A DNA stretch of 63,005 nucleotides from an uncultured Pseudomonadales bacterium (lineage in GTDB: Bacteria > Patescibacteriota > Microgenomatia > UBA1400 > PJMF01). The stretch is taken from assembly GCA_964509285.1 (NCBI GenBank), contig CAZDWQ010000001.1, forward strand, positions 1 through 63,005, read 5' to 3'. A program made the position numbers and the translations under genes. Below, piece by piece: positions 20,390 through 50,359 of the stretch (its first letter is position 1; every line of letters begins with the position of its first letter). The notes under the pieces are model-generated. The model was not told the DNA's origin, did not search any database, and saw only the letters and a program-made list of their open reading frames with translations.

Positions 20390-20392
20390 ACC

Positions 20393-20914
20393 TTACGCAA
20401 CTGACCACAGTTCTTTAAACTCTTTTCTTGCTCTAAATAAATCTGACTCTATTGATTTTTCACTTTTCTTAAACTCTTGAGCAATTGCTATTACTTTTTT
20501 ACCGTCTGCATACTTGAGTAACAATAATTCTTTGTAGTAACTCTTCATTTTTGCTAATACTTGTGTAACTTTTTGTGAAACATCATCACTATCAGAAATG
20601 TGATTCAGCGGAAGTAAATCTGATAATGGAATTGTCTGCAGTGCCTTTTTGGCATATTTTTTTCTAAAATAATCCGCAATTTCATGCCGTGCAATAGAGT
20701 TCATCCACGTCCAAATGCTAGATTTTCCCAAAAAAAGTGGTAAATGCTTTAAACAGTTCAGAAAAGTCTGCTGCACAATTTCTTCGGCATCTTTCTTATT
20801 TGATATTTTCACTCCGACAACATTTAAAAGCCGAGTGTAGTACAAATCAAACCATACTTTAACTGCACGTTCATCGCCTGTTTTAAGTTGAGCTAGTAAT
20901 TGCTTTTCTTCCAT
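20393..20914 (-). CDS. ECF-type RNA polymerase sigma-70 family factor
   Basis: Region 2-like DAEEIVQQTFLNCLKHLPLF and region 4 HTH LLLLKYADGKKVIAIAQEFKKSEKSIESDLFRARKEFKE. The ATG at 20914 (MEEKQ) is preferred, with TACAAT 12 nt upstream. Confidence 0.8.
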   Translation of the reverse strand: MEEKQLLAQLKTGDERAVKVWFDLYYTRLLNVVGVKISNKKDAEEIVQQTFLNCLKHLPLFLGKSSIWTWMNSIARHEIADYFRKKYAKKALQTIPLSDLLPLNHISDSDDVSQKVTQVLAKMKSYYKELLLLKYADGKKVIAIAQEFKKSEKSIESDLFRARKEFKELWSVA

Positions 20915-21008
20915 ACTATTTATTGTATTGTACAACAAAATTTACACCTGCCAGGCAAACTTAGATACTTTCCATCAAGATAAGCCTACTATATAATAGG
21001 GTTACATT

Positions 21009-21380
21009 ATGTTTTTTGGATTAATACCTACCGTCTATGCCCAACAATTGAGTCCTTGTGGAGCAGGCAACGGAGGAATTAACTTAGGAAATTGCCTCAA
21101 GCTTTCAGATAGTACTCAAATAAGCGCTGTGTACGACAATCCTGCATTTTTAGTAAATTTGCTCATTAGCAACCTATTTGTTGTTGCTGGAGTTATCTTT
21201 TTCATTTTTCTCATTGTTGCCGGTTTTAAATTCATAATTGGTGGTCAAAAAGGTGCAGAAGATGCAAAAAACATTATCACAACCGCCATGTCTGGTTTCA
21301 TCATTATGTTTGCTGCATACTGGGTCATTCAGATTGTTGTCTTATTAACAGGAATAACTATTGCAGGAGTAAGTCAATAA
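21009..21380 (+). CDS. T4SS pilin-like protein (VirB2/TrbC-type two-helix), paralog 1
   Basis: Signal-like N-terminus, then FVVAGVIFFIFLIVAGFKFIIGGQKGAEDAKNIITTAMSGFIIMFAAYW. Confidence 0.7.
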   Translation: MFFGLIPTVYAQQLSPCGAGNGGINLGNCLKLSDSTQISAVYDNPAFLVNLLISNLFVVAGVIFFIFLIVAGFKFIIGGQKGAEDAKNIITTAMSGFIIMFAAYWVIQIVVLLTGITIAGVSQ

Positions 21381-21382
21381 AT

Positions 21383-21766
21383 ATGTCAATATTTACTATC
21401 TCGAAAGTATTTGCACAAACTCCAGAAGAAATGATAGGAGAAATTGAAATCCCGAAAGGTGTTGATCTTATTAACACACAAGCTGGTGGTATAGGTATCA
21501 TTTTATTCGTCTCTAAAATAATTCGTTTTATCATCATTCTAGGGGGCATTTGGACATTAATAAATATTATTTTTGCTGCATTTTTATATTTTAACGGTGG
21601 AGGAAAATCAGATACGCATAGTAAGGTAAGTAGTAAATTTACCATGAGCGTCATCGGATTGATGCTCATCATCATTTCCTATACTGCGGCAGCACTGATT
21701 GGATTACTCTTCTATGGAGACGCAACCTTTATCTTAACACCAAAAATCACTCCTATTGGAGGATAG
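21383..21766 (+). CDS. T4SS pilin-like protein, paralog 2
   Basis: IWTLINIIFAAFLYFNGGGKSDTHSKVSSKFTMSVIGLMLIIISY. It starts 2 nt after paralog 1. Confidence 0.7.
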   Translation: MSIFTISKVFAQTPEEMIGEIEIPKGVDLINTQAGGIGIILFVSKIIRFIIILGGIWTLINIIFAAFLYFNGGGKSDTHSKVSSKFTMSVIGLMLIIISYTAAALIGLLFYGDATFILTPKITPIGG

Positions 21767-21773
21767 GAAACGT

Positions 21774-22349
21774 ATGAAAGTATTACTTGTGAAAGTACTG
21801 CGTAATCTAATTTTAAGCTTATTTACTACCTTGCTTTTTGCTAGCGTACTTTTCTCTTCACAACTTATTCAGCCAAAACAAGTTTCTGCTGCAACATGTA
21901 GTTATATAGGACAATGTATTGATAACAAAAGATGCATTTGCGTAGTTTTGGGAGGAGAATGCTATAGCAATCAACCAGAACTCATTTTGAGTGACCAACC
22001 ATGTGGATCAGCAATCATTGGCGGTGTCGAGGCTCCAATTGCTATAACAAATATCAATATGGCATCAGGTCAAGAAATTGGACTTATCTTTTTTATCTCT
22101 AGAACTCTCAACTTTGCCAATATTGTAGCCGGAATTTTAGTAATGATTAACTTTGTAATTGCGGGATTTACTTATATTACCAGTGCTGGAAATGTGGCAA
22201 ACATGACTAAAATCAATGAAAAACTAATGTGGAGTGTTCTTGGCATCTTAATGATTGTTGGTTCATACACTTTAGCCGCAATTTTTGGTCTTGTTTTTTA
22301 TGGCGATCCAACATTTATTATTACCCCTGTATTAACAGGAGCAATTTAA
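21774..22349 (+). CDS. T4SS pilin-like protein, paralog 3 (longer Cys-containing N-terminal region)
   Basis: GGAGGA lies 10 nt upstream of the ATG at 21774. C-terminus VMINFVIAGFTYITSAGNVANMTKINEKLMWSVLGILMIVGSY. Confidence 0.7.
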   Translation: MKVLLVKVLRNLILSLFTTLLFASVLFSSQLIQPKQVSAATCSYIGQCIDNKRCICVVLGGECYSNQPELILSDQPCGSAIIGGVEAPIAITNINMASGQEIGLIFFISRTLNFANIVAGILVMINFVIAGFTYITSAGNVANMTKINEKLMWSVLGILMIVGSYTLAAIFGLVFYGDPTFIITPVLTGAI

Positions 22350-22385
22350 TGAGTATTTGGTATATAATAGAATAAAGAAAATAAT

Positions 22386-22757
22386 ATGATCTTACCAACA
22401 CTGATAGCACAACTTGGCAGTTTTGAATCATTTTCACCACTCACAGACGGTGCAAAAGAAAATCCAGGCGAAAATATAGAAACACTCATTTCTAACGTTT
22501 TTGGTTTTCTGACTATTGTTGGTGCAATTTTCTTTATTGTATCTTTTTTAATCGCAGCAATGGAGTGGATTACTTCCGGAGGTGATGCTGGCAAATTAAC
22601 TAACTCGAGAAATAAAATGATGCAGGGAATCTTGGGTTTAATTATTTTGGTTGCAGCATATGGAATTATCGGGCTTATTGGAAGCTTAATTGGTATTAAA
22701 TTACTTGAACCAGCACTATTGCTTGAAAGTATTACTCCAGGACAAGCCACTCCATGA
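22386..22757 (+). CDS. T4SS pilin-like protein, paralog 4
   Basis: FFIVSFLIAAMEWITSGGDAGKLTNSRNKMMQGILGLIILVAAY. Confidence 0.75.
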   Translation: MILPTLIAQLGSFESFSPLTDGAKENPGENIETLISNVFGFLTIVGAIFFIVSFLIAAMEWITSGGDAGKLTNSRNKMMQGILGLIILVAAYGIIGLIGSLIGIKLLEPALLLESITPGQATP

Positions 22758-23176
22758 AAACACTAACAAAAAAAAATTCAGCAGCAATATTAACAATTAG
22801 CTCTTTTGTAGCAGCAACACTGCCTTCTTACGCCGCCATTACTAACCCAGTGACCGGAGGTCTGGGAAATGATGTAGAAAAAGCAGCCTCAGGAGAAACC
22901 TTTGTTTACTACTTTACAACCCTTTGGAACTCATTCGTCGTCATTGGTGCAATCGCAGTTCTCATCATGTTCCTCTGGGGATCACTAGAATGGATTGCTG
23001 CTGGTGGTGACACAGGTAAGATTGAAAAAGCAAGAAATAGAATTACGCAATCTATCCTGGGTTTGCTGATCTTAGTGAGTGCTTTCGTAATTATCGGATT
23101 TGTAAGCCAATTATTCTTTGGTGAGGAATTTTCAATACTCAACTTAACATTTACACAAGTCGGAGGAGAAGAATAA
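22754..23176 (+). CDS. T4SS pilin-like protein, paralog 5
   Basis: ATGA overlap with paralog 4. LIMFLWGSLEWIAAGGDTGKIEKARNRITQSILGLLILVSAF. Confidence 0.75.
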   Translation: MKTLTKKNSAAILTISSFVAATLPSYAAITNPVTGGLGNDVEKAASGETFVYYFTTLWNSFVVIGAIAVLIMFLWGSLEWIAAGGDTGKIEKARNRITQSILGLLILVSAFVIIGFVSQLFFGEEFSILNLTFTQVGGEE

Positions 23177-23679
23177 TGAAACAACTTTTACTCGCGCTCT
23201 TTGTAAGCTTTTCAATTTTTGTCGGAGGCATTATTGCACTTTTGCCCGCAAAAACGACTTATGCACAAGAAACAATTGAGCTTAATTTTGGTGATGTTGC
23301 CAAAGATAATAATGTGATTGGAACTGAAAACTATGAATCAGACGATGGTAAAGCTGGTTTTGGAATACTCATTGGACAAATAATTGATATTGTTTTTACT
23401 ATTGCGCCAATCATCGTATTTATCATGTTTCTCTGGGGCAGCATTGAATGGATGACCTCGGGTGGTGATAAAACCAAAATTGAAAAGGCAAGAAGCAGAA
23501 TTACTCAGTCAATTATTGGAATGTTCGTCCTTACAACAGTAATAGCAATTTTCATAGAACTGCAAAAAGCTCTGAATTTTGAGGTATTTGATTTTGCTGC
23601 TGGAACAATCTCAAACCCTCCCAATAATCCAGAAAATCCGGGTAATCCGAGTATCCCACCAAAAAAATCACCGCTTTAA
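23176..23679 (+). CDS. T4SS pilin-like protein, paralog 6 (Pro/Asn-rich C-terminal tail)
   Basis: TAATG overlap with paralog 5. FIMFLWGSIEWMTSGGDKTKIEKARSRITQSIIGMFVLTTV. Confidence 0.75.
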   Translation: MKQLLLALFVSFSIFVGGIIALLPAKTTYAQETIELNFGDVAKDNNVIGTENYESDDGKAGFGILIGQIIDIVFTIAPIIVFIMFLWGSIEWMTSGGDKTKIEKARSRITQSIIGMFVLTTVIAIFIELQKALNFEVFDFAAGTISNPPNNPENPGNPSIPPKKSPL

Positions 23680-23695
23680 AAAAAGAAATAGAAAC

Positions 23696-23725
23696 TTGAC
23701 GTTTTGTCCCGGACACAGGTATAAT
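23696..23725 (+). promoter_or_regulatory. Sigma-70-type promoter for pilin paralog 7 (TTGACG, 18 nt, TATAAT)
   Basis: -35 ttgacg at 23696-23701 and -10 tataat at 23720-23725, followed by AAGGAA before the ATG at 23774. Confidence 0.6.
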
Positions 23726-23773
23726 TAGTCATAAGTATTCAGTAATTAACTGAAAGTAAAAAAAGGAACACAT

Positions 23774-24139
23774 ATGAGAAATAAACTCAACGGTTTAGCG
23801 CTGACAGTAGGCGCATTTATAACATCAGCTCCTGTAGTATTTGCAGCAACTCCTGTAGAACCAACCAGTTTCTATTTCGATGATATTGGTGTATTGATTA
23901 ATAAAATCCTTAATTTTGTTATGGTGCTTGGTGCGTTACTAGTTTTTATGTATCTTATTTGGGGTGGCATTGAATGGATTACTTCGGGTGGTGATAAAAC
24001 CAAAACAGAAGCTGCTCGTGGAAAAATTACTGCTGCAGTTATAGGTTTAATTGTTCTTGCTGCATCATGGGCTATCCTTGGATTGGTCCTCAACTTCTTG
24101 GATGCAGGATCATTCTCAGATTTAATCGAAACCCTGTAA
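23774..24139 (+). CDS. T4SS pilin-like protein, paralog 7; candidate major subunit
   Basis: Signal peptide ending VVFAA. VFMYLIWGGIEWITSGGDKTKTEAARGKITAAVIGLIVLAASW. It has its own consensus promoter and its own terminator. Confidence 0.75.
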   Translation: MRNKLNGLALTVGAFITSAPVVFAATPVEPTSFYFDDIGVLINKILNFVMVLGALLVFMYLIWGGIEWITSGGDKTKTEAARGKITAAVIGLIVLAASWAILGLVLNFLDAGSFSDLIETL

Positions 24140-24160
24140 TTCTTTGCAGAACTATAGTTA

Positions 24161-24196
24161 AAAAGCCCCTCTTTATGAAGGGCTTTTTAGTTTTTA
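24161..24196 (+). terminator. Rho-independent terminator after pilin paralog 7
   Basis: aaaagccc...gggctttt stem followed by a T-rich tail (tttttagttttt). Confidence 0.7.
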
Positions 24197-24205
24197 ATAA
24201 TTTGA

Positions 24206-24214
24206 TGCTATAAT
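24206..24214 (+). promoter_or_regulatory. Extended -10 promoter (TGcTATAAT) 11 nt upstream of the paralog 8 ATG
   Basis: tgctataat at 24206-24214; ATG at 24226; no Shine-Dalgarno sequence in between. Confidence 0.5.
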
Positions 24215-24225
24215 TATCTACACAG

Positions 24226-24639
24226 ATGATCAGAAAAAATAAACTATCAACTTTCAAAATAGTACTGACTATTTTTGTTGCGTATTTATATTCCGCCTCA
24301 TCAGCATTTGCCCAAACCGTGAGTTGGAGTGGCGTCTGCGTTGGTGGAGACGATCATGATGTTGCAACCATTCAAGGTCTTGAATGTTTAATTGCAAACG
24401 TATTTACTGTTATTATTACTCTTATTGGGTTATCTGCCTTTGTCATACTCATTGTTGGTTCGGTTCGCTGGCTTCTCTCTGGAGGAAACTCAACTCACTT
24501 AGATAAAGCAAAAAATACTATGACTTATGCGGTTATTGGTATCGTGGTAGCATTAAGTGCATTTATCGTTCTAAACTTGATTGCAGGATTCACTGGGATT
24601 AACACCATCAAAACATTTAAAATTCCTACTTCAAACTAA
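24226..24639 (+). CDS. T4SS pilin-like protein, paralog 8
   Basis: Signal peptide ending SAFAQ. FVILIVGSVRWLLSGGNSTHLDKAKNTMTYAVIGIVVALSAF. Confidence 0.7.
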   Translation: MIRKNKLSTFKIVLTIFVAYLYSASSAFAQTVSWSGVCVGGDDHDVATIQGLECLIANVFTVIITLIGLSAFVILIVGSVRWLLSGGNSTHLDKAKNTMTYAVIGIVVALSAFIVLNLIAGFTGINTIKTFKIPTSN

Positions 24640-24683
24640 ACTGGTGCTCCATAATCTAGATCAAATAAGGTACAATAAAGATT

Positions 24684-27600
24684 GTGCGCAAGATACTATT
24701 TAAACTGCTATTCATACAGATTTTGTTTTTTTTTGTTATTGTAATCCAAATCATTGACCCAACTGTTGTCTTTGCAGCATGTGGCGCAGGCCAGATAGAT
24801 ATGCTTGAATATATGGGTCCTGAAAACGCTACTAGTTTTGAGCTTAGGTATTGTGGACCAAATGGAGAAGGTAGTGAACAAATTTTAGTTGAACGCGGAA
24901 TAGTCTACACAGAAGAAGGTGAAAAAAATGGTTTTTTCATTAATAAAGGTGGAAACTACGAGGCCTACTTCTTTGATGATTCATTCATATATTTTTACGA
25001 AGACATCTCATGGGATGAACAATGTAATGGTCAAGAAGCCTTTTATAGAGTGTTTACTCCTGGTGAAGGCGTTGGAGGAAAAATTCCTCGATGTATATCT
25101 CCTGGCGAATCTTTTTCTTCAAATCAACAGATAAAAGCATACTATGAAGCTGATTATCTACAATATACAAAAACAAACGCTCCTCCAACAGGAAATATTT
25201 GTTCAGATTCTTTTCCAGCTAATGTTGTTACTGCAACAGTTGTGTATGCAAATGAAACTCAAGGAGGTCCAGTTATTCCTGGCACAAACACAACAGATAC
25301 CATCGCTATGACAAATGTAAGTGGTGCTGGTGTTGGAGAAATAAAATACTATACAAAAGGCTATGGTCTCACAGGGTTTCAAGCATCAAATTCTTCTGGA
25401 ATTTATTTTGAAAGCCTATTTTATAAAGATGGTCTGAGTACTTCAGAGCCAGTCCTTTCCTGCTCTAGTCAAGATGGAACTTATGATATGAGTATTTACC
25501 CAGACTATGAAGTTGATGAAACAAAATTCTACTTATCTCCTATCAGAAATGTAATTAATCAAGGCTCTTTACAAAGAACAGTCGAAAAATTAAGAAAAGA
25601 ATTAGCAATGCAAGGGTATCAAGCATATTGTGCTACAGAAGGTGTAAAAATTGAACCAGAATATAATACAAAAGAAAAAATAGAGACATACCTTGAACAA
25701 TATAATATCCCAAAAATCCTAGAAATGGATGCTATTGAAATACTCAATATGACAAACGCACAGTATCCCCTTTGGCGTGATGTAAGTAATAAGCAGTTTT
25801 TATTAGCTTCACTTGAAGAATATTTTGGTTTTCGCGATGTCTATATTGGTAGTCCATCCGATGCTGTTCTAACAAGTTCACCTATAAATTCACTACTCTC
25901 TGAACCGCAACTCTGTGTTCAAGGTTGGAGAAACTTGGTAGCCCAACAACTAGCTTGTGAAAGACTAAAAAATCCAGGAGAATGCGAACTCTTAACAAGA
26001 AAAATTCCTAAATTGGCATTTTCGTCAGATCTCTCCGAGAGTTCTGGACCAGAATACACAGTGAGCACACTTCTTGATGAATTAGCTGAATATGAACCAA
26101 ACTATCGAGACGGTACTGCTGTGAGTGGTTGTAAAAAATTAACAACTCAAGATAGGGCGGCTAATGAAGATCTATTACAAGGATTGATGAACACCCCAAC
26201 ATACTTTGATCGCGCATATAGATATGGTTTCATTGTTGCAGTTATACATGCAAAATCCCCAGGAACCGAAAGCGGTAATGTAGCAACAAAAATTTTCAAC
26301 TTCTTCACAAAAACAACTCGAAATCTTGTTCCAGATGATGAAGTTTTAGTGGCTGCTTTCAAACTACCAGACATTGCAACAAATAAAGGAGGAGGCGATG
26401 ATACCGGCTCACAATTTTGGTCTGATCCTCTGGATTTAACGCGAAAATTACTATTCACGAATGAACAAAATATCACTCATGAAGATGTTGATAGACCAAA
26501 TAAACGACAGAATACTCTAGATCAAGCTATTGCAGCCGCAGTTCAAGGACCAGAAAGTAAGATTTATTGTTATGAAGGGGCCTTTCCATATGGAATTGGC
26601 ACAAAATCTTGTCAAAATGAACTTACCAAAGCATTAACTGATATTATAAATGGTAATGTCGAGGGTTGTGGCGAGGCTGAGGTTGTACAAGTTATTAAAG
26701 ACTTGGCTGGATTAGATAATCCAGCAGAAAAATATGGGAAGGTTTTTAATAACGATAATGGCCAACAAGTAATGCTCAATCTCTTTTTGAATGATTTAAC
26801 CCACCCGCCTTTGGGTGTTAACGGACAAACAAATCCGCAAATTGCTAAAACTGATGATCCTGCAGAAAAGCTCAAGTCTCTTTTTACAATCTCTGAAGAT
26901 ACCTGGCCACCAATAGTAGATTCAACCACTGTTGACTTCTATATTGTATATCCGATTGGTTTTGAATTAAACGCAGTAGAAACAGCAATGAAAAGTGCAT
27001 TTTTTTCTAAAGCCCAACTCGCCGCCCTTGAAGCTGATAATAATATCGACAATTTTGAAATGACAGATCACGAAATTGGACTTGCTGCTGGATCAGTTGG
27101 TTTTGATTATATTGACAAAGAAAAAACCGCAAATGGTGAGTGTGGCACTGAAATTACAGCTTCTGGCGCCGTTGTCAACAAGCCATGTGTTGAAAATGTT
27201 TCTATTAGTGTCAATCAGGAACATACTGAAATTGGTGTAATGGGAGCAAAACTTGGGTATTGGATGAGAAAAATTCAGTTGCAATTAAACGCGCGTGCGT
27301 CTGATGCCTGGGCATACTTTGATTCTTGTAAAACGACAGAAGAGTTTTTACTCGGTAAGTGTGAAGGTGGAGGAATTGTTGCCGATGGCGGTGGAGGCGG
27401 AGGTGGGAACGGTGGACCAAATCCTGGGAATGGGCCTGGACTATCCTGTGAAGATCTCAGAGCGCTGACTGTAAACCTTCCAACAATGAGCGAACTTGAA
27501 AATATGGTTTGTCAAATTGCAAACGGTGATTCTAATGATGCTCAATTAGTCTGGGGTATGTTACAGGTTGATGGAAGTCCATTTTTGAGAACTATCCGCT

Positions 27601-28040
27601 CTGGAGCATCAAGCATGAGCTGTGGAGATATTCTAATAAATAGCTGTGGCGCCTCACAAATCGTTGGCGTTTTAATTCCACAATGTATTGATAAAGATGC
27701 TTGTCCACAAGCAGCATATATCGCTGACAACACCTCTGACCCTTGGGTACAAGAGGCTCGTAATAATCCTGATGTAGCCTGTGATATTGAAACTCAACTT
27801 GATTTCATCCTAAGAAAAAGAAAATCAGAAAAATCGTATCTTATTGGGCAATATGAAGCTGCACATGGCGTCTCTCCATCAACGCAACAACTATATTATA
27901 TGATGGCTGCTAGAAATTATGGACTAAGTTCAGATATTTTCACTAAACCAGCTTGCCAAGGAGCACCTGCAGTACAAGGTTGTGGTGGAGCTAATTATTG
28001 TGAATGTGTCATGGATACATTCCAATTCAGTTGCAATTAA
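24684..28040 (+). CDS. 1118-aa exported protein of unknown function, possible lipoprotein, with a poly-Gly linker and Cys-rich C-terminal domain
   Basis: GTG start. N-terminal hydrophobic segment ending VVFAAC (lipobox-like). GGGIVADGGGGGGGNGGPNPGNGPG encoded at 27364-27440. Many Cys in the last 200 aa. No family recognised. Confidence 0.55.
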   Translation: MRKILFKLLFIQILFFFVIVIQIIDPTVVFAACGAGQIDMLEYMGPENATSFELRYCGPNGEGSEQILVERGIVYTEEGEKNGFFINKGGNYEAYFFDDSFIYFYEDISWDEQCNGQEAFYRVFTPGEGVGGKIPRCISPGESFSSNQQIKAYYEADYLQYTKTNAPPTGNICSDSFPANVVTATVVYANETQGGPVIPGTNTTDTIAMTNVSGAGVGEIKYYTKGYGLTGFQASNSSGIYFESLFYKDGLSTSEPVLSCSSQDGTYDMSIYPDYEVDETKFYLSPIRNVINQGSLQRTVEKLRKELAMQGYQAYCATEGVKIEPEYNTKEKIETYLEQYNIPKILEMDAIEILNMTNAQYPLWRDVSNKQFLLASLEEYFGFRDVYIGSPSDAVLTSSPINSLLSEPQLCVQGWRNLVAQQLACERLKNPGECELLTRKIPKLAFSSDLSESSGPEYTVSTLLDELAEYEPNYRDGTAVSGCKKLTTQDRAANEDLLQGLMNTPTYFDRAYRYGFIVAVIHAKSPGTESGNVATKIFNFFTKTTRNLVPDDEVLVAAFKLPDIATNKGGGDDTGSQFWSDPLDLTRKLLFTNEQNITHEDVDRPNKRQNTLDQAIAAAVQGPESKIYCYEGAFPYGIGTKSCQNELTKALTDIINGNVEGCGEAEVVQVIKDLAGLDNPAEKYGKVFNNDNGQQVMLNLFLNDLTHPPLGVNGQTNPQIAKTDDPAEKLKSLFTISEDTWPPIVDSTTVDFYIVYPIGFELNAVETAMKSAFFSKAQLAALEADNNIDNFEMTDHEIGLAAGSVGFDYIDKEKTANGECGTEITASGAVVNKPCVENVSISVNQEHTEIGVMGAKLGYWMRKIQLQLNARASDAWAYFDSCKTTEEFLLGKCEGGGIVADGGGGGGGNGGPNPGNGPGLSCEDLRALTVNLPTMSELENMVCQIANGDSNDAQLVWGMLQVDGSPFLRTIRSGASSMSCGDILINSCGASQIVGVLIPQCIDKDACPQAAYIADNTSDPWVQEARNNPDVACDIETQLDFILRKRKSEKSYLIGQYEAAHGVSPSTQQLYYMMAARNYGLSSDIFTKPACQGAPAVQGCGGANYCECVMDTFQFSCN

Positions 28041-28067
28041 CTTTAAGACCTAGTTAAAAGAAAAAAA

Positions 28068-29114: not shown

Positions 29115-29280
29115 ACTATCTATATAGATCATATTATATACTATATAGTACAATATATACACGGTTGCAAATATATTTTCAACCCTACTTTTGTTCCCCC
29201 CGCTAGAACTTTTACTAAAAAACTCCTTTTATCAGGCTTAAAAAGCGCACAATTCCTTCTGGTGTAAATATAAAGAATTT

Positions 29281-29289
29281 TGATATAAT
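29281..29289 (+). promoter_or_regulatory. Extended -10 promoter (TGaTATAAT) 11 nt upstream of the VirB6-like gene ATG
   Basis: tgatataat at 29281-29289; ATG at 29301; the intervening agactttgaat lacks a Shine-Dalgarno sequence. Confidence 0.5.
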
Positions 29290-29300
29290 AGACTTTGAAT

Positions 29301-30905: not shown

Positions 30906-31127
30906 AACTATATACACTCATAATTTTCTGATATCATTTATGCATGTCATACCCAACACAAATTTTGCATAAATTAATTAATATCATTAAACCTCAAAAA
31001 AAAATTGAGACAAATGTACCAACTTCTTCTAACAGTACAGAAACTCCTCCACAAAAAATACAATATGAACTTGGGGGACCGGCTATTGAGCCGCACCAGG
31101 GCGGGATTGGTCCAATCAAACTATAGT

Positions 31128-35645: not shown

Positions 35646-35727
35646 AAAACATACCCTAAGTAACTGTCTTATATTCTACCATTTCGCAAAGAAAAAAAAC
35701 ACCAGCTTTATAAGTTAAAAGATCTGG

Positions 35728-37197: not shown

Positions 37198-37372
37198 ATA
37201 CTCTAGTTATACAAAACTATCTCAAATTTTTCCATTGCACTTTTTTGATAAATTCTGATATAACTACTTCACCAAAATAATTGTGGAATCTAGTGTGATT
37301 CTAGAACTGTGCCGCAACGGTAAATTTGAACTGATAATTCAACATAAGTCCGATCTTCAATTACTTTGAGTA

Positions 37373-38365: not shown

Positions 38366-38472
38366 AAGACGAGTTTGAACAATTATTTAAACTAGTTTTA
38401 TACCAAAACTCAGAACAACACGCCATTAACCATACCCATGTTCCAGAAGTCGATCTACAAGCATTTTGGCAA

Positions 38473-39624: not shown

Positions 39625-39661
39625 CTAGAAATTACTACCTAACTCAGGGTATAATTAACTT

Positions 39662-44497: not shown

Positions 44498-44522
44498 ATA
44501 ATTACAAAAAAAATAAAAATAT

Positions 44523-45536
44523 ATGAACAAAACAGCAACCGAATGGTCTAAAACAAAACTTTTGCTAATCGTTTTTGTAATAGTACTCATTGTAAACATC
44601 ATGTATCAACTATTTGCACAAAAACAAGAAATGCCACCAAACGCTGTTGTGCCAGAACAACCGAGCCTTACCTCTAATTCTGTTCTTAATCAGATTGCAA
44701 TTCAAAAAATTACCGTGACTGCAAAAGAACCGCAATTACCAACACTTTTGCCTGTTTATAAGATAGAAAACCAACAACCACTCTCTGCAATTGCTCAAAC
44801 AATTGCTCTCAAACAAGGTTTGCAACATGAAAGTAGTAGAACTGACATTTGGTCACACCCAACAGATCAAAAATTTTTAACCTATTCAAAGACAAACAAT
44901 TTAATTGTCTATACAAGTCAAACGAGTGAAATAGCGCAAAACCTCGACCAAAATGTTGCTATTGAAACCGCACAATCATTTATAAGTACAAACATATCAG
45001 AAATACCAGTTACTCCAGATTTACAATCCATAGTAAAAACAACATATCAAACAGAAATGAGTGAATCTTATGGAGCAATCCCCGCTGGTGAATCCCTGTA
45101 TATTATCCCTTTTATTCAAACAACCAATACTTTCTCAATTTATTCGCAAACCCAAGCGCAACAACCTATTTGGGTTTGGGTTGGACCAAATTATTCTATT
45201 ATCAAAGTTGAAATTTCTGCAAGCTTCCTTGAAATTTCACAAATTGGAAATGGCGTTCCTATAGATTTTGATACTTTAAAACAATTTATTATTGATGGGA
45301 AAGGTGTAGTTCTTGAAATTACCGATGAAGGACCAACAATCCCTATTTCAAAAACAATTCTTGAGGCAAATCTAGATTCTGCAGAGTTAGAATACAGAGT
45401 TGATACAGCTACTAACACTCTCTATCCTTTTGTTCGTTTTTCCGGAGTTGCTACATTTACAGATAACTCCAAAGGTAAAATTGAAATCTCTCATCAAATA
45501 GTTCATTCTACAAACACAATAAATCTGCTAGAATAA
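44523..45536 (+). CDS. Bitopic membrane protein, unknown function (YycI/YycH-like anchor; positional VirB8/PrgL candidate)
   Basis: N-terminal EWSKTKLLLIVFVIVLIVNIMYQLF followed by an extracytoplasmic region of about 300 aa. The assignment is by position only. Confidence 0.3.
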   Translation: MNKTATEWSKTKLLLIVFVIVLIVNIMYQLFAQKQEMPPNAVVPEQPSLTSNSVLNQIAIQKITVTAKEPQLPTLLPVYKIENQQPLSAIAQTIALKQGLQHESSRTDIWSHPTDQKFLTYSKTNNLIVYTSQTSEIAQNLDQNVAIETAQSFISTNISEIPVTPDLQSIVKTTYQTEMSESYGAIPAGESLYIIPFIQTTNTFSIYSQTQAQQPIWVWVGPNYSIIKVEISASFLEISQIGNGVPIDFDTLKQFIIDGKGVVLEITDEGPTIPISKTILEANLDSAELEYRVDTATNTLYPFVRFSGVATFTDNSKGKIEISHQIVHSTNTINLLE

Positions 45537-45563
45537 AAATACGTATTTTTTAATACTATTACG

Positions 45564-46736
45564 ATGCAAGAGCACCCAATTCCACAAGATATTACGGGTT
45601 ATAGATTCCATATTATTGGAAGTATGACTCTAAAACAATTTGGAGAAATTCTTATTGGTGTTATTTTTGGATTCATATTTTTTAAAACAAACCTCATTGC
45701 CGTTATAAAATGGCCACTCGTTTTACTCAGCGTTGGGATGGGGGCGGCCGCCGCCTTTGTTCCAATTGAAGAGCGGCCGCTCGACCACTGGATCGTTACT
45801 TTTTTTAGAATTATGTACAAACCAACCAAATTTTATTGGAGAAGAACTCCAACTATTCCTGACGCTTTTAAATATGAAGTTCTCGACAAAAATAAAGAAA
45901 AGGAACCTGTTCTTGATCTTACACCTGCCAAAAGACAAAGAATTAAAGAATATGTCAGTGCAATTCCAGAAGTTGCAACAGTCAGGCAAGATTTTACTAC
46001 CGACGAACTATCAAGAATGCAAAATATTTTGTCCTCATTTACTACTGTCCAAGTAACAGAAAGAATTGTTACTTCTGCCCAACCTGTTCAAGAAAAACCA
46101 AGGATGGATGTTCGTGTTAGAAAAATGCGAAAACCAGTAATTCAAGAAGTAACTATTTTTGAAGATACTACAAATATTTCATTTCCTGTTTCAAATACTT
46201 ACGAAAAAGCTGAAGAACCACCAACTGTGCTCCAAAAGAAAAAAACAGTCCTTGAAAGTGATCAGGTTGCAAGAGATATAGAAATTCCTGAAGAAAAAAT
46301 TGTTAAAACAGTCTCAGAAAAAGAACAAGAAGAAAAGATTAATGGATTTAAAACCTCAATAAACGACTCAAGTGAAAAATCTTATCTTGAACCACAAGCT
46401 CAAAACACAACTCAAACAATAGCTGTTCAAGACGCTCAATATAATCAAAATTTACCATTTCCTATTAAACCAAGTGAACCAAACAAAGTTGTAGGCATGG
46501 TATTGGGTCAAAACAATGATCTCTTAACAAATGCAATTGTAGAAATTCAAACTCCAGAAGGAAGTATTGCCCGTGCTGTTAAAACAAACGCACTCGGACA
46601 ATTTTTCATCACCACTCCTCTTAAAACTGGAGACTATAATATAGTAGTAGAAAAAGCTGGGTATCAATTCCAACCACAGCACTTAATTATCAACAATACT
46701 ATTATTCCGCCTATGGAAATTCGAAGTGACAACTAG
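45564..46736 (+). CDS. PrgI/VirB3-like membrane protein with a C-terminal carboxypeptidase-regulatory-like beta domain
   Basis: The start HPIPQDITGYRFHIIGSMTLKQFGEIL plus two TM helices is the PrgI-family pattern. C-terminus VVGMVLGQNNDLLTNAIVEIQTPEGSIARAVKTNALGQFFITTPLKTGDYNIVVEKAGYQ. Confidence 0.65.
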   Translation: MQEHPIPQDITGYRFHIIGSMTLKQFGEILIGVIFGFIFFKTNLIAVIKWPLVLLSVGMGAAAAFVPIEERPLDHWIVTFFRIMYKPTKFYWRRTPTIPDAFKYEVLDKNKEKEPVLDLTPAKRQRIKEYVSAIPEVATVRQDFTTDELSRMQNILSSFTTVQVTERIVTSAQPVQEKPRMDVRVRKMRKPVIQEVTIFEDTTNISFPVSNTYEKAEEPPTVLQKKKTVLESDQVARDIEIPEEKIVKTVSEKEQEEKINGFKTSINDSSEKSYLEPQAQNTTQTIAVQDAQYNQNLPFPIKPSEPNKVVGMVLGQNNDLLTNAIVEIQTPEGSIARAVKTNALGQFFITTPLKTGDYNIVVEKAGYQFQPQHLIINNTIIPPMEIRSDN

Positions 46737-46769
46737 AAATAAGGTAAAAAAACAAATACTATTAATACA

Positions 46770-48014
46770 ATGGCAACAACACAACAAATTGACTCTACTA
46801 CTCAACAATTTCTAGATATTTATGACATTACGAATGATCTAGTGATTCTCAAAGATGGAACTGCTTCTCTTGTTATTACCGTCGATGCAATAAACTTTGG
46901 GCTTTTAGCAGAAGAAGAACAAGACAGTATTATGTATGCGTATGCTGGATTACTGAACTCTCTCAATTACCCTATTCAGATTGTTATTAAATCTCAAACC
47001 AAAGATGTTACTGGCTACTTACAACTCTTAAAAGATCAGGAAGATAGAGCCGAAAGCCGCCTACAACAACAACGAATTATGAAGTATCGAGAGTTTGTCT
47101 CAAACTTAATTCGTGAGAGAAATGTTTTGGATAAAAAGTTTTATGTTGCAATTCCTGCAAAACCACTTGAGCTTGGTCTACTTCCTGTTTCTAGCGTCGT
47201 TCCTGGCCAAAAGCAAACAGATATTTCTACTGTTGATAAATCTATGGTTATTGAAAAAGCTAGAGACATCTTAGAGCCAAAAAGAGATCATCTGATTGCA
47301 CAATTTGCTCGAATTGGTCTGTATTCAAGACAATTAGAAACACAAGAAATTATCCAATTATTCTACCAAAGTTATAATCCAGAAGCTTCTGATGGGCAAA
47401 CCATGGGTGACAGCAAAAGCTATACTACTCCCCTTGTAACAGCTAGTGTAGAAAATGTGGGTATGAATAGCTCATTACCACAACAATTTGCACCTGTTCA
47501 AGAACAGCCTGTTGCTGCTATTGAGCCAGCTGGTTTGGAAATGCCGGTTCTAGAAGCACCTGTTTCAGAACTACCAACCATGGAACAATCACAACAACCA
47601 GTTGCGACACTAACGCCTGAGCCCGCTCCTGCTATGCCATCATCTCCTGCTTCTACTCCAAACCTACAATCAATGGGATATACACCAACCCAAATGGCGC
47701 AAACTCCTCCAGCTGAGATAACTCCTGCTGTTGATGGAATGGCTACTACTGTTGTTCCTACACCAGCAACAACCACAGCTACAACCAAAGCAACAATCCC
47801 AATACCAACTCCACTCCCACCAATGCCAGATCTACCAAAAACAGCTTTGGGTGAAGTAGAGCCAGCAGTTCCACAAGAAATTGAGATTCAAATTGACCAC
47901 CCAAGCAGTACAAACATACCAATAACTCAAGTAGGAAGTCCGGTTACAGAAACCACCTCTGCACAACCTGTGCAAGCTGACCCAGTTCTGCCTCCACTTC
48001 CAGAAATACAATAA
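46770..48014 (+). CDS. Hypothetical protein: about 220-aa N-terminal domain resembling the N-terminal domain of Gram-positive VirB4 ATPases, then a Pro/Thr/Ala-rich tail
   Basis: DLVILKDGTASLVITVDAINFGLLAEEEQDSIMYAYAGLLNSLNYPIQIVIKSQ matches the PiNF-L-seeEq pattern. There is no Walker motif. Confidence 0.4.
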   Translation: MATTQQIDSTTQQFLDIYDITNDLVILKDGTASLVITVDAINFGLLAEEEQDSIMYAYAGLLNSLNYPIQIVIKSQTKDVTGYLQLLKDQEDRAESRLQQQRIMKYREFVSNLIRERNVLDKKFYVAIPAKPLELGLLPVSSVVPGQKQTDISTVDKSMVIEKARDILEPKRDHLIAQFARIGLYSRQLETQEIIQLFYQSYNPEASDGQTMGDSKSYTTPLVTASVENVGMNSSLPQQFAPVQEQPVAAIEPAGLEMPVLEAPVSELPTMEQSQQPVATLTPEPAPAMPSSPASTPNLQSMGYTPTQMAQTPPAEITPAVDGMATTVVPTPATTTATTKATIPIPTPLPPMPDLPKTALGEVEPAVPQEIEIQIDHPSSTNIPITQVGSPVTETTSAQPVQADPVLPPLPEIQ

Positions 48015-48034
48015 AAAGGCTAGAATAAACTGTA

Positions 48035-50176
48035 ATGCCCAACCCACTAGCATCACTACCGTTTTTCAAGAAAAAAACTGCAGGAAATACTGCTGGTGTT
48101 ACTGTTAAAACTGAAGAGCAACAAAACATTGAGAAACTCCAAGAATTTTCTCGAGGCCTTGTTACTATTCAAGATATTATTGCTCCAGAGGCTATTGAAG
48201 TCGATTTTACGTATCAAAAAATTAACTCAACCTATACAAGGACCTTGTTTGTTGCTGGCTATCCTCGTTCTGTTCCAGCCAACTGGCTTTCTCCGCTCAT
48301 TAACTATCCACATCAGATTAACGTTTCTATGTTTATCTACCCTGTTGATTCTGGAGAAATTCTCGACAACTTAAAGAGAAAAATCACAGAAATGGAGGCT
48401 GAAATTCAGTCTGATCTTCGTGCTGGCAAAATTTCTAATATTAATACCGAAATTAAGCTCGAAGATGCTCGATTTATTCGTGAAGAGCTTGCAAAAGGTT
48501 CTGAGCGTTTTTACCAATTTGGTTTGTACGTTACTATTCAGGCAGAATCAAAAGAACAACTCGATAAAGTTACCAAAGGAATTCAATCTTCACTTGGCTC
48601 TTTATTGATTGTTTCTAAAAAAACTACGCTGCAAATGGACGAAGGCTTTAAAACAACCTTGCCAATGGGTTTAGATAAACTCTTGGTTACTCGTAACATG
48701 GACACCACTTCTCTTGCTACAACGTTTCCATTTACTTCTAGTGAATTAACCATGGAAACTGGTATCGTCTACGGAATTAACGAACATAATGATTCTTTGG
48801 TTATTTTTGATCGGTTTAAGATGGAAAATGCCAACATGGTAATTTTTGCAAAATCTGGTGCTGGAAAATCATACACTGTGAAACTAGAAATTTTCCGCCA
48901 GCTCATGTTTGGGGCAGAAGTGATTGTTCTTGACCCAGAGCATGAGTATGAAGATTTAGCTGCAGCTGTTCAAGGTGAATATATTAACTTTACCTTTGGC
49001 TCTAAAACAAAACTCAATCCATTTGATCTCTCAAACCTCTATGAAGAAGGTGAAAACGAGTTGGGCCAAAAAATTATTTCTCTGCATGGATTATTAAAAG
49101 TCATGCTTGGAGAAATGACTCCACAACAAGATGCTTTGCTTGATCGCGCTCTTGTTGCAGCATACAAAGCAAAAGGGATTACTCCAGATCCAGCCACTCA
49201 AACAAATGAGCCACCGCTCATGGAAGATGTCTACAAAGCTTTGATTGGTATGGAATCCAAAGACGTTGATGATATTTCTGCTCGTATGGAAAAATTCATC
49301 ACTGGTTCGTTCCGCGGAATTTTTGACCAAAAATCTAATTTTGATATTACTAACCAACTCACCGTCTTTTCCGTTAAAGAAATGGAAGAAGCAATCCGTC
49401 CGATTGCTATGTACGTTATTCTTGATTTCATCTGGACTAGAGTAAAGAAAGACCTGAAAAAACGTATTCTTGTTGTTGATGAGGCTTGGTACTTTATGAA
49501 GAACCAAGATTCTGCGTCATTCTTGCACTCAATGGTGAAACGCGCTCGTAAATATTATCTTGGTGTGACAACTATTACTCAAGACGTTGAGGACTTTTTG
49601 CACAATGATTATGGTCGTGCTATTGTGACCAACGCTTCAATTCAGTTCTTAATGAAACAATCTACTGCTTCTGTGCCAATCTTGGCGGAAACATTCTATC
49701 TTTCTCAAGGTGAGCGTCAATTGCTCGTTACGGCTGATGTTGGAGAAGGTATTTTCTTTGCTGACCAGAACCATGTTGCTCTCAGAGTTGTTGCAAGCGA
49801 CGAAGAACACGTCTTGATTACTACAAATCCTGAGGAGCTTGCTGGAAGAAAAGCTCAAAAGGGAAATATGCCTGGCGCTGAATCTGTAATTCACACTGAG
49901 TTACCAAAAAAGCAAACAGATACACAATCTCAACAAACCCCTGAAGAACAAGCTGAAAAGCAAAAACAGGAAGAGATATTACAGCAATTTAATAAACCAA
50001 GTGTTTCTGAAACAGGAATGATCACTAACCCAAATGGCAACTCATCACAATCTCTGTCACAGCCACAAATGCAACAACAAGGATTGCCAACTTTACCACA
50101 AGCTGCTCCAGAACGAAAACAAGTTACTTCTCAGGATTTATACTCAATAGATAATTATCAGCCACCAAAAAGCTAG
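48035..50176 (+). CDS. virB4: VirB4/TraC-family T4SS ATPase
   Basis: N-terminal YTRTLFVAGYPRSVPANWLSPL, Walker A FAKSGAGKSYT (nt about 48848-48874) and Walker B RILVVDEAWYF. Gln/Pro-rich tail. Confidence 0.85.
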   Translation: MPNPLASLPFFKKKTAGNTAGVTVKTEEQQNIEKLQEFSRGLVTIQDIIAPEAIEVDFTYQKINSTYTRTLFVAGYPRSVPANWLSPLINYPHQINVSMFIYPVDSGEILDNLKRKITEMEAEIQSDLRAGKISNINTEIKLEDARFIREELAKGSERFYQFGLYVTIQAESKEQLDKVTKGIQSSLGSLLIVSKKTTLQMDEGFKTTLPMGLDKLLVTRNMDTTSLATTFPFTSSELTMETGIVYGINEHNDSLVIFDRFKMENANMVIFAKSGAGKSYTVKLEIFRQLMFGAEVIVLDPEHEYEDLAAAVQGEYINFTFGSKTKLNPFDLSNLYEEGENELGQKIISLHGLLKVMLGEMTPQQDALLDRALVAAYKAKGITPDPATQTNEPPLMEDVYKALIGMESKDVDDISARMEKFITGSFRGIFDQKSNFDITNQLTVFSVKEMEEAIRPIAMYVILDFIWTRVKKDLKKRILVVDEAWYFMKNQDSASFLHSMVKRARKYYLGVTTITQDVEDFLHNDYGRAIVTNASIQFLMKQSTASVPILAETFYLSQGERQLLVTADVGEGIFFADQNHVALRVVASDEEHVLITTNPEELAGRKAQKGNMPGAESVIHTELPKKQTDTQSQQTPEEQAEKQKQEEILQQFNKPSVSETGMITNPNGNSSQSLSQPQMQQQGLPTLPQAAPERKQVTSQDLYSIDNYQPPKS

Positions 50177-50242
50177 GCTAAATTATTTTCATTTGCCTTG
50201 AGGTGAATGGCTGTAAATCAATTAATTTTACTCGTTGCCAAC

Positions 50243-50271: not shown

Positions 50272-50359
50272 AGTTATTCTGCCCTTGGTGGTGCTACTTC
50301 ACTCCCAAAATCACAAAAAACAGTGTTATATAAAGTTATTTTAGAATAGTGCGTAGACC

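Follow-up and report, generated by a model that had tools for sequence, protein, structure and literature searches.

The locus described here lies at positions 20393 to 50176 of a 63,005-nt stretch of DNA, itself a complete NCBI contig (the window, by which we mean the whole stretch that was analysed) and encodes a type IV secretion system (T4SS) whose closest described counterparts are the T4SSs of the Patescibacteria. In Southlakia epibionticum (S. epibionticum), the T4SS encoded by SEML1_0006-0019, together with a pilin array, is essential for epibiotic growth and has no recognisable coupling protein or relaxase (PMC10633639); a VirD4 homologue of this organism is non-essential, though the T4SS is essential (PMC12102498). 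VirD4 homologues are found in most Patescibacteria genomes, usually far from virB4, and the Patescibacteria VirB4 proteins form a monophyletic clade nested in MPF-FATA (PMC12102498). According to the same account, TrsD is the commonest T4SS-associated protein in Patescibacteria, VirB2 arrays hold 2-11 genes (∼25% mean identity) and are most abundant in Microgenomatia and Saccharimonadia, and virB4 lies close to dnaA/dnaN in the classes Microgenomatia and Paceibacteria (PMC12102498). Before the Patescibacteria T4SS, no such system had been shown to be indispensable to the growth of its own carrier (PMC11665869, PMC12857230). Its role has been called “completely unknown”, with effector delivery and nucleotide acquisition both proposed (PMC11665869). 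Strain OT8, a cultivated member of the Microgenomatia, forms tubes, possibly T4SS pili, that extend as far as the envelope of its host, and it acquires host RNA (bioRxiv 10.64898/2026.06.21.733656). A 2025 FEMS review already recognises these systems as a new branch of the T4SS superfamily (PMC12857230).

Judged from its genes, the T4SS of the window appears to be of the Patescibacteria-clade type (PMC10633639, PMC12102498) and thus of an already known kind. It combines an MPF-FATA VirB4, TrsD, PrgI, a pilin array, the lack of a linked relaxase and proximity to dnaA. An earlier note on this DNA had read the locus as a domesticated, non-conjugative Gram-positive-style T4SS beside oriC in a reduced-genome episymbiont; hidden Markov model (HMM) assignments, synteny and the absence of genes of an integrative and conjugative element (ICE) bear this out, and the interpretation is correct as well as already published (PMC10633639, PMC12102498). 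In our assessment the locus very probably encodes a monoderm, MPF-FATA-derived T4SS, relaxase-less and no longer conjugative, that carries macromolecules between epibiont and host. Homology establishes a VirB4 with a TrsD-like partner, a PrgI/VirB3-like protein, VirB2-like pilins and an M23 hydrolase; the mechanism set out further below is what we infer.

Core genes and their setting beside dnaA

The minimal Gram-positive T4SS core consists of VirB4, VirB6, VirB3, a VirB8-like protein and a wall hydrolase, as in prgH-I-J-K-L of pCF10 and in Tn916-type elements. Families were assigned to the open reading frames (ORFs) of the window by Pfam and NCBIfam HMM scans judged against the model cut-offs, and the ORF map agreed with the earlier coordinates. 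Relatives of VirB4 were collected by a back-translated scan of one genome per GTDB species, which gave 263 tblastn-confirmed relatives (68-90% identity); synteny was counted in the best 80 of these 263, 76 of which were informative. The core genes of the window are:

48035 to 50176, forward strand: VirB4-family ATPase of the monoderm MPF-FATA CD1110 type (NF045971; P-loop_TraG, AAA_10)
46770 to 48014, forward strand: TrsD-like protein of 414 amino acids (aa), its N-terminal ∼120 aa homologous to the N-terminal domain of monoderm VirB4
45564 to 46736, forward strand: PrgI/VirB3-like membrane protein (PF12666) with two transmembrane helices and a long C-terminal extension
39662 to 44497, forward strand: M23 giant of 1611 aa with an M23 domain, the presumed wall hydrolase (VirB1 analogue)
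29301 to 30905, forward strand: VirB6-like polytopic membrane protein of 534 aa with at least six transmembrane segments and a structural match to TrwI

The VirB4 ATPase that the earlier note had placed here scored 375.7 bits (cut-off 325) with NCBIfam model NF045971 (VirB4-like conjugal transfer ATPase, CD1110 family), matched Pfam P-loop_TraG and AAA_10 as well, and carries both expected motifs (Walker A, AKSGAGKS at residue 272; Walker B, ILVVDE at residue 478). It is the only protein of the locus with a strong Walker A. Its best plasmid homologues come from Bacillota and Actinomycetota (28-37% identity), and by these matches it is of monoderm (MPF-FATA) affinity. The VirB4 of the window aligns to the CD1110 model only from position 177 onward, and the TrsD-like protein matches the same model at positions 10-90 (in addition to VirB4_plasma at positions 104-236, E 7.7e-9, and the TrsD model NF041427, E 1.7e-4), so the usual N-terminal domain of VirB4 appears to be encoded by a separate upstream gene. 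The link is drawn solely from NCBIfam models for the VirB4s of other monoderms; an hhalign comparison of the TrsD-like family with the lineage's own VirB4 family found no similarity. An orthologue of the TrsD-like protein in a JGI contig carries PF26593 (TraC-like), and the gene adjoins virB4 in 74 of the 80 loci, with a family length of 225-705 aa and a variable C-terminal extension.

The PrgI/VirB3-like protein proposed in the earlier note was upheld by PF12666, its score lying just above the cut-off (27.4 bits against 27; residues 5-89), and is conserved in 71 of the 80 loci. At its C-terminal end a CarboxypepD_reg-like Ig domain scored below the gathering threshold (29.3 against 32.3 bits). 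The polytopic protein was called from the ATG at 29301 (534 aa), where its homologue also starts, the upstream TTG of the ORF being at 29295. It belongs to a family of more than 889 members, none of which has a Pfam domain, and gave no Pfam, NCBIfam or PDB sequence-profile match itself. With its AlphaFold2 (AF2) model (pLDDT 67), the top three Foldseek matches in the PDB were R388 TrwI/VirB6 chains (8rt9_F with E 7e-3 and probability 0.99, then 7o3v_G and 7o3v_F; E up to 6e-2, TM-score 0.2-0.3). Because these TrwI matches come together with polytopic topology and genomic context, “probable VirB6 analogue” is a fair description of the modelled protein; that it is a VirB6 homologue is unproven. 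Of the earlier VirB6/TrbL-like assignment, the polytopic nature stood and the weak TrwI match speaks for it, while the Pfam, NCBIfam and PDB sequence comparisons gave it no support.

The 1611-aa protein is laid out as a cytoplasmic N-terminal part of ∼1050 aa, a Gly-rich cluster of transmembrane segments (residues 1053-1194), an external M23 domain (residues 1277-1351) and a C-terminal NAGPA-like part. The M23 domain scored 49.8 bits (cut-off 28.7), has M23 matches in the PDB and conserves the HxH motif. The earlier note had assigned both M23 and NAGPA-like domains to this protein; the former scores above its cut-off and the latter falls short of it (15.7 bits against 25), so that, on profile scores, a NAGPA-like domain at the C-terminus is plausible but not established. 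The family of the M23 giant lies upstream of PrgI in 63 loci, and the protein is a functional analogue, not a homologue, of the VirB1-type SLT + CHAP/NlpC-P60 hydrolase.

The best 80 of the 263 VirB4 relatives are all in metagenome-assembled genomes (MAGs) of Patescibacteria type (candidate phyla radiation, CPR), the closest being BroJett025 (90% identity), and plasmid VirB4s reach at most 37% identity, against 68-90% for the 263 relatives. dnaA follows virB4 in 76 of the 80 loci (median distance ∼170 bp), and the contigs of the other four end before dnaA could appear. The order PrgI-TrsD-VirB4-dnaA-dnaN-yidC is kept in all 76 informative loci, over a range in which DnaA identity falls to ∼50%. 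Four relatives (VirB6-like protein 43-77% identical) share the order of the left half as well, flanked by housekeeping genes. From left to right, the shared order runs: HMG-CoA reductase, NUDIX, two small genes, an ECF sigma gene on the reverse strand, 7-9 pilins and a 900-1170-aa protein; then a reverse-strand gene for a 270-350-aa protein, the polytopic protein, a reverse-strand gene for an 880-1100-aa protein and optional extra genes; and finally the M23 giant, a 195-337-aa protein, PrgI, the TrsD/TraC-like protein and VirB4.

No relaxase, type IV coupling protein (T4CP), VirB11 or integrase domain was found by the Pfam and NCBIfam scans in any sizeable ORF of the window, and T4SS-DNA_transf, TraG-D_C and FtsK-like models had no match among the window ORFs. 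A further 23 ORF families (≥250 aa) from the ±10-kb neighbourhoods of the relatives likewise held no relaxase, T4CP or integrase. The 63-kb window has no tRNA, and its G+C content stays at ∼35-40% with no compositional step across 20-50 kb. The earlier note had seen no VirD4/TcpA, relaxase, VirB11, integrase, tRNA or compositional break in the 63 kb, and none came to light here; it had also proposed profile searches and a comparison with relatives, including a search for ICE genes and for absence of the locus from close relatives. The profiles supported VirB4, PrgI and the pilins, and the locus proved to be present in close relatives, beside dnaA in 76 of 76 informative loci and in its full order in the four distant ones, with no ICE genes in the window or the neighbourhoods. 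Since synteny with housekeeping genes is conserved and mobility genes are lacking, the locus is, as far as these comparisons reach, a fixed, vertically inherited part of the chromosome and not an ICE; its position beside oriC is probably ancestral in this lineage.

Two features to the right of virB4 give the replication context:

50243 to 50263, reverse strand: one perfect and one one-mismatch DnaA box in the virB4-dnaA spacer (context, not a part of the machine)
51918 to 52053, no strand assigned: five clustered DnaA boxes between dnaA and dnaN (context, probable oriC)

The stop codon of virB4 lies 183 bp from the start of dnaA, in agreement with the ∼180 bp and the DnaA box of the earlier note. 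The window has only two perfect TTATCCACA boxes, one in this spacer (50243-50251) and one opening the five-box cluster at 51918-52053 in the dnaA-dnaN spacer, which, on its sequence, is the probable oriC. The cumulative GC skew has its turning point at ∼51-53 kb, and DnaA boxes and skew together indicate that the locus adjoins the replication origin. To the right of virB4, Pfam and NCBIfam identified dnaA, dnaN, yidC, jag/khpB and an RNase H gene; the left of the locus is occupied by housekeeping genes (mevalonate pathway, uppS, NUDIX hydrolases and DNA glycosylases).

Several observations on this neighbourhood can be added. The mevalonate cluster (12141-19135, reverse strand) is complete, with thiolase, HMG-CoA synthase-like protein, HMG-CoA reductase, GHMP kinases and decarboxylase, followed by uppS, and HMG-CoA reductase and NUDIX genes border the locus in relatives too. 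Transcription of the T4SS core operon and dnaA (37373-51916) runs in the direction of the probable origin between dnaA and dnaN, with the same orientation in all 76 relatives; if the GC-skew reading is right, these genes run head-on to the leftward replication fork over ∼13 kb. A gene for a 984-aa DUF4012 protein (55867-58821, forward strand), a further large conserved protein close to the origin, follows those for yidC, jag and RNase H and keeps its position in 54 relatives.

The records of the relatives are labelled Pacebacteria, Woesebacteria, Microgenomates and “Patescibacteria group”, and one labelled relative is in Minisyncoccota (NCBI taxonomy). The MAG of the window probably belongs to the Patescibacteria class Microgenomatia (OP11), a placement that we take from the record names of the relatives. 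Among loci L007-L080, many records with this clearly patescibacterial virB4-dnaA arrangement bear the names “uncultured Pseudomonadales”, “Limisphaerales” or “candidate division TM6” (CP011212.1); such public record labels are probably taxonomic errors.

The pilin array and the lineage-specific proteins

Between the sigma gene and the first of the large proteins lies an array of pilin paralogues (bit scores are for PF18895, Pfam T4SS_pilin, cut-off 26.6, and for an HMM built within the locus):

21009 to 21380, forward strand: pilin paralogue 1, 123 aa (PF18895 16.5 bits, below threshold; in-locus HMM 37.1 bits)
21383 to 21766, forward strand: pilin paralogue 2, 127 aa (no Pfam match; in-locus HMM 36.6 bits)
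21756 to 22349, forward strand: pilin paralogue 3, 197 aa, extended at its N-terminus by a Cys-rich part (PF18895 17.8 bits; in-locus HMM 34.3 bits)
22386 to 22757, forward strand: pilin paralogue 4, 123 aa (PF18895 37.2 bits)
22754 to 23176, forward strand: pilin paralogue 5, 140 aa (PF18895 35.4 bits)
23176 to 23679, forward strand: pilin paralogue 6, 167 aa (PF18895 29.4 bits)
23774 to 24139, forward strand: pilin paralogue 7, 121 aa (PF18895 46.3 bits, the best of the array)
24226 to 24639, forward strand: pilin paralogue 8, 137 aa (PF18895 36.0 bits)

Five of the eight thus scored above the gathering score of PF18895, two matched below threshold and one had no match; weak TrbC/VirB2 matches also occurred among the pilins, and paralogue 5 gave a below-threshold match to the Mbov_0395 family of pilin-like conjugal transfer proteins. 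With an HMM made from the five strong pilins, the three remaining ones came out at 34-37 bits (E ∼1e-11 to 1e-12), and no protein of the locus outside the pilins matched it. A leader followed by a hairpin of two transmembrane helices is common to all eight. The recovery by the in-locus HMM and the shared hairpin show that the eight-gene array is real, as the earlier note had held for VirB2/TrbC-like pilins at 21009-24639.

Identity among the paralogues is mostly 21-40% (37% between paralogues 2 and 3). When the array of the window (21009-24639) was compared with those of relatives (L082, 1480-5195; L084, 2588-6332; L085, 727-5402), the best match of each pilin was the one at the same ordinal position, with 57-80% identity in BroJett025 (72%, 72% and 64% for pilins 1, 2 and 3), 42-72% in L084 and 36-67% in L085. 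Identity between orthologues (36-80%) is thus well above that between paralogues (21-40%), which argues that the paralogues are old and individually conserved. On this pattern, the eight pilins fit better as distinct, non-redundant subunits than as interchangeable variants. Pilin 7 has the most conserved orthologues of the array (80%, 72% and 65% identity); upstream of it stands the best-matching sigma-70-like promoter in the region (23696-23725; 11 of 12 positions, in a scan that was overall not enriched over shuffles) and downstream of it a terminator-like hairpin and T-run (24167-24182). Because it also has the top Pfam score, pilin 7 is likely to be the major pilin.

Two more pilin-domain proteins lie outside the locus as delimited here:

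7769 to 9175 and 9175 to 10185, forward strand: two pilin-domain fusions of 468 and 336 aa, each with a C-terminal T4SS_pilin domain and a Cys-rich N-terminal part

They scored 25.8 and 28.1 bits with PF18895 and 22.1 and 40.8 bits with the in-locus pilin HMM, respectively, and may be pilus-tip or adhesin subunits. The fusion genes are 11-13 kb left of the array, beside a gene for a SpoIID-domain protein (6016-7782, reverse strand), and the 336-aa protein has an internal repeat of ∼60 aa (…GGYCMNFNVGCSNGGTTITDASCVDILFN…).

Divergent from the array is a small operon with a gene for a sigma factor of extracytoplasmic function (ECF) type:

19854 to 20938, reverse strand: sigma operon of small genes and the ECF sigma gene, divergent from the pilin array
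20393 to 20938, reverse strand: ECF-type sigma-70 factor (Pfam Sigma70_r2, Sigma70_r4_2 and Sigma70_ECF; TIGR02937)
20195 to 20389, reverse strand: 64-aa protein with one C-terminal transmembrane helix, directly downstream of the sigma gene
19854 to 20192, reverse strand: 112-aa polytopic hydrophobic membrane protein, last gene of the operon

The divergent ECF sigma factor named in the earlier note was recovered by all three Pfam models above cut-off and by TIGR02937 (61.7 bits, cut-off 42.9). It adjoins the pilin array in three of four relatives and is absent in L085. The locus intergenic regions yielded no common ECF-type promoter motif and carry sigma-70-like TATAAT elements, of housekeeping rather than ECF type; a regulatory link between the ECF sigma factor and the pilins is thus suggested solely by their conserved adjacency (three of four relatives). 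Neither small protein had a Pfam or NCBIfam match. In relatives, a 58-61-aa gene takes the position of the 64-aa protein, and a 107-115-aa gene that of the 112-aa protein. The 64-aa single-helix protein is a candidate anti-sigma factor; whether the 112-aa protein belongs to the T4SS is uncertain. Both are positionally conserved and are candidate anti-sigma or sensor partners of the ECF sigma factor.

About 46% of the locus had no family assignment, and PADLOC defence models had no match among its orphan proteins. The large proteins in this category are:

24684 to 28040, forward strand: 1118-aa secreted or anchored Cys-rich protein with an N-terminal hydrophobic segment, no family match
28068 to 29162, reverse strand: 364-aa cytoplasmic protein, no transmembrane helix, no family match
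31128 to 35645, reverse strand: 1505-aa cytoplasmic protein in a hypervariable slot, no transmembrane helix, no family match
35728 to 37197, reverse strand: 489-aa acidic, Ala-rich cytoplasmic protein, only its C-terminal half conserved
37373 to 39624, forward strand: gene of ∼710 aa, broken at an A8 run (38337-38345) by a frameshift that leaves one ORF of 330 aa and one of 383 aa
44523 to 45536, forward strand: 337-aa bitopic protein of YycH-like fold, with an N-terminal transmembrane helix and three external alpha/beta modules

The earlier note had counted about 50% of the locus as orphan and had listed proteins of 1118, 1505, 489, 330 + 383, 337 and 414 aa as large and without motif. Its estimate is fair in view of the ∼46%; two entries of the list changed, the 414-aa protein being TrsD-like and the 330- and 383-aa ORFs being parts of one gene. 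The latter follows from BroJett025, in which a single ORF of 709-712 aa spans both frames (residues 1-295 and 297-710). The identical A8 split was present in an independent Logan assembly of SRR8893623, and a real frameshift, slippage and a read-level error are all possible at 38337-38345. The ∼710-aa family occurs in 11 loci, is cytoplasmic and has no domain match.

Homologues of the 1118-aa protein (908-1172 aa) stand at the same position in four relatives. In an alignment of four homologues, a Cys-rich core (∼aa 267-895) was strongly conserved and the N- and C-terminal domains differed, which suggests, at the level of the alignment, that end domains have been swapped on a constant core. In BroJett025 and L085 the N-terminal domain, which has GNE[IV]NN and LTEFSLSP motifs, is unlike that of the 1118-aa protein, and L084 lacks the domain. 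Two assignments made by eye were dropped: a clan-A glycoside hydrolase for the N-terminal domain of the BroJett025 homologue had no Pfam support, and a lytic transglycosylase at the C-terminus of the 1118-aa protein (GMLQV, NYG) had no Pfam match at E ≤ 1, in a domain that is not conserved. The 364-aa protein has homologues of 39-74% identity at the same position and on the same strand in relatives.

Among clearly orthologous loci (L082, 11695-14331; L084, 11818-14856; L085, 11815-15111), proteins of 750-1505 aa from at least three to four unrelated families are found in the slot on the right-hand side of the VirB6-like gene. The 1505-aa protein of the window is 28-37% identical to the 1012-aa protein of L084 and showed no similarity to the same-slot proteins of BroJett025 (878 aa) or L085 (1098 aa); every other gene of the BroJett025 locus is 57-90% identical to its counterpart in the window. 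No plasmid homologue of the 1505-aa protein was found. A cryptic ATPase was considered among the orphans and rejected, the only trace being a loose Walker-A-like string in the 1505-aa protein that we take as chance. The 489-aa protein, for which no domain match was found, is 33-35% identical over 156-212 residues to same-position proteins of 377-419 aa.

The 337-aa gene lies directly upstream of PrgI in 42 loci. An exhaustive search gave the protein a family of 226 representative clusters of uniform length, whereas word-indexed searches, even with a 35-sequence profile, returned only three to four relatives; the protein evolves fast. There was no Pfam or PDB-profile match to it, and Pfam scans of 35 members were empty. 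Its AF2 model (81 sequences; pLDDT 88.3, pTM 0.81) had one significant PDB match, 9a5d_B (YycH in a WalK-YycH model; Foldseek E 1.6e-5). By position, just upstream of PrgI, and by its single N-terminal transmembrane helix, the protein had been the natural candidate for VirB8, but the top 50 Foldseek matches included no VirB8, TraM, TcpC or PrgL, and YycH was the best. The VirB8 idea is therefore unsupported, in agreement with PMC12102498, where VirB8 went undetected in most Patescibacteria.

It shares with YycH and YycI, the WalK regulators of Bacillota, a bitopic topology and three extracellular alpha/beta modules. It differs from YycH in having no sequence similarity, no Pfam YycH match in 35 members and no WalK-like kinase nearby; the likeness is at the level of the fold only (TM-score 0.29-0.37), and the 337-aa gene sits inside the T4SS operon.

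Proposed working and its alternatives

In the working that we propose, assembly would be powered by the VirB4 ATPase, with its N-terminal domain supplied by the separate TrsD-like gene, on a membrane platform made of the PrgI/VirB3-like protein and the VirB6-like polytopic protein. The M23 (and NAGPA-like) giant would open the cell's own wall locally. The eight pilins and the two upstream fusions would be extracted from the membrane and assembled as a polymeric pilus or tube, with pilin 7 as the likely major subunit, and this structure would contact a host bacterium and carry macromolecules between the cells without a relaxase. The 1118-, 364-, ∼710- and 337-aa proteins would be lineage-specific accessory parts. 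As to what the system does, we lean towards a conduit or attachment role that is independent of a coupling protein and would serve to acquire host material.

Some points weigh against this account. The data cover 63 kb, and a coupling protein may lie elsewhere in the genome. With a hypervariable cytoplasmic giant beside the VirB6-like gene, export of a substrate is easier to reconcile than import. In the M23 domain the first zinc-binding motif (HxxxD) is not evident, and catalytic competence is unproven; the NAGPA match (PF09992) reaches only 15.7 bits against a cut-off of 25, although it spans profile positions 2-163 of 169 and the C-terminal 170 residues. A VirB8-like protein was not detected in the locus, where the sole bitopic candidate (44523-45536), the one orphan for which a structure was modelled, resembles YycH, and the VirB6 assignment comes from a weak structural match (E 7e-3, TM-score 0.2-0.3).

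Three other functions, ranked by how well they stand up, are export of the variable giants as the main rival, then nucleic-acid import, then adhesion alone. In the first, which is possible though unlikely, the system is an effector translocator that exports cytoplasmic proteins of the locus (1505, 489 and ∼710 aa) into the host to subvert it; the hardware is the same as in our preferred explanation, and only cargo and direction differ. Effector delivery has already been speculated upon (PMC11665869, PMC10633639), and several large proteins of the locus are indeed cytoplasmic, with neither transmembrane helices nor signal peptides. The occupation of the slot beside the VirB6-like gene by at least three to four unrelated families is moreover a pattern typical of effectors or host-facing proteins. 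Such export sits poorly with the lack of a coupling protein in the locus and with the dispensability of the VirD4 homologue in S. epibionticum, where the T4SS is essential (PMC12102498). No toxin or enzyme domain was recognised in any of the candidates, nor is a secretion signal known.

Helicobacter ComB and archaeal Ced function without a relaxase and without a VirD4 protein, and a less probable reading has the locus encode a nucleic-acid importer of that sort, drawing on host DNA or RNA as a source of nucleotides. The VirB4 of the window has a weak CedB match (54 bits), but this is far below the cut-off and reflects only a VirB4-type ATPase fold common to both; components specific to ComB or Ced did not turn up, nor did the locus show a nuclease domain or one that binds nucleic acids. 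Patescibacteria are without nucleotide synthesis, uptake through the T4SS has been proposed (PMC11665869), and a Microgenomatia strain is reported to acquire host RNA (bioRxiv 10.64898/2026.06.21.733656).

That the locus makes an adhesive pilus only and passes no substrate is decidedly improbable. The pilin array, with eight pilins and two fusions, is the most expanded part of the system, Cys-rich extracellular proteins that are possible adhesins are present (the 1118-aa protein and the pilin fusions), and the window has no coupling protein. Patescibacteria, however, already adhere by type IV pili (PMC11665869, PMC12102498), and the conserved VirB6-like and PrgI-like channel parts, with several cytoplasmic partners, suggest more than pilus assembly. 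An ordinary or decaying ICE that came to lie beside dnaA by chance, as the homology of VirB4, PrgI, TrsD and the hydrolase to conjugation proteins might suggest, is barely credible given a position between mevalonate/NUDIX genes and dnaA that is kept down to ∼50% DnaA identity, the lack of integrase, relaxase, T4CP, tRNA and GC break, and genes that are intact save for one frameshift. Att repeats, an integrase and a relaxase at the borders of the locus were sought without success, as were sister genomes without it.

A bolder version of the preferred account joins a heteromeric pilin tube, the 1118-aa protein as a tip or wall factor, the 337-aa protein in place of VirB8 and the variable giant as a host-specific effector into one coherent, lineage-wide module by which Microgenomatia would feed on their hosts. 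We regard this combination as improbable; if true, it would be a T4SS variant with a new architecture and an identifiable cargo. The Patescibacteria account for a large part of the diversity of bacteria.

Comparison with known systems

The conjugative monoderm systems of the MPF-FATA type (pCF10 prgH-prgL, pGO1 trs, CTn2/CD1110, Tn916 and ICEBs1) share with the window the VirB4 family, PrgI and TrsD, a membrane-anchored two-domain wall hydrolase and the lack of an outer-membrane core. Unlike them, the locus has no relaxase, oriT or T4CP (within the 63 kb; a relaxase or oriT was not found near virB4 in the relatives either), is not part of a mobile element and has no detected VirB8-like protein. 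Its hydrolase pairs M23 with a NAGPA-like part, whereas that of the conjugative systems pairs SLT with CHAP, and it has VirB2-like pilins, which Gram-positive systems generally lack. A Bacillus mycoides plasmid (NZ_CP036106.1, 10631-14867; locus L086) carries, in order, a pilin, a hypothetical protein, VirB4 (DUF87) and an SLT/C40 hydrolase; VirB2-like pilins are thus not wholly absent from monoderm loci of MPF-FATA type.

With the diderm MPF-T systems (VirB/D4) the window shares the pilin alone (PF18895, weak TrbC/VirB2); the outer-membrane core proteins VirB7, VirB9 and VirB10, as well as VirB5 and VirB11, had no Pfam or NCBIfam match in any protein of the locus. Bordetella Ptl, Brucella VirB, Helicobacter ComB and archaeal Ced resemble it in lacking VirD4 in the locus and in serving a non-conjugative function, but they are diderm MPF-T or archaeal systems with other accessory proteins. 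To our knowledge, none of the four is essential for the growth of its owner and none has an eight-gene pilin array.

The likeness to the Patescibacteria-clade T4SSs is far closer. Like the window, these are described as chromosomal systems with a monoderm VirB4, a TrsD neighbour and a PrgI/VirB3-like protein (PMC10633639, PMC12102498). The same accounts describe divergent or undetectable VirB6 and VirB8, an M23-type hydrolase replacing VirB1, tandem divergent VirB2-like pilins, no relaxase and, in Microgenomatia, dnaA/dnaN beside virB4. Points of this lineage that do not appear in the available parts of PMC10633639 and PMC12102498 are the positional order of the pilins, the ECF module, the 1118-, 364-, ∼710- and 337-aa proteins and the giant slot. 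The window offers candidates in pilin 7 as the probable major pilin, VirB4 with its N-terminal domain split off, the YycH-like protein in the position of VirB8, conserved proteins and a possible effector slot; the details that deserve to be followed as leads are the positional pilin orthology, the split VirB4, the YycH-like protein, the conserved proteins without assignment and the hypervariable giant slot. Nothing in the window differs in kind from the Patescibacteria-clade T4SSs: it adds no new kind of system and provides a clean, almost complete example from the Microgenomatia, a little-studied branch.

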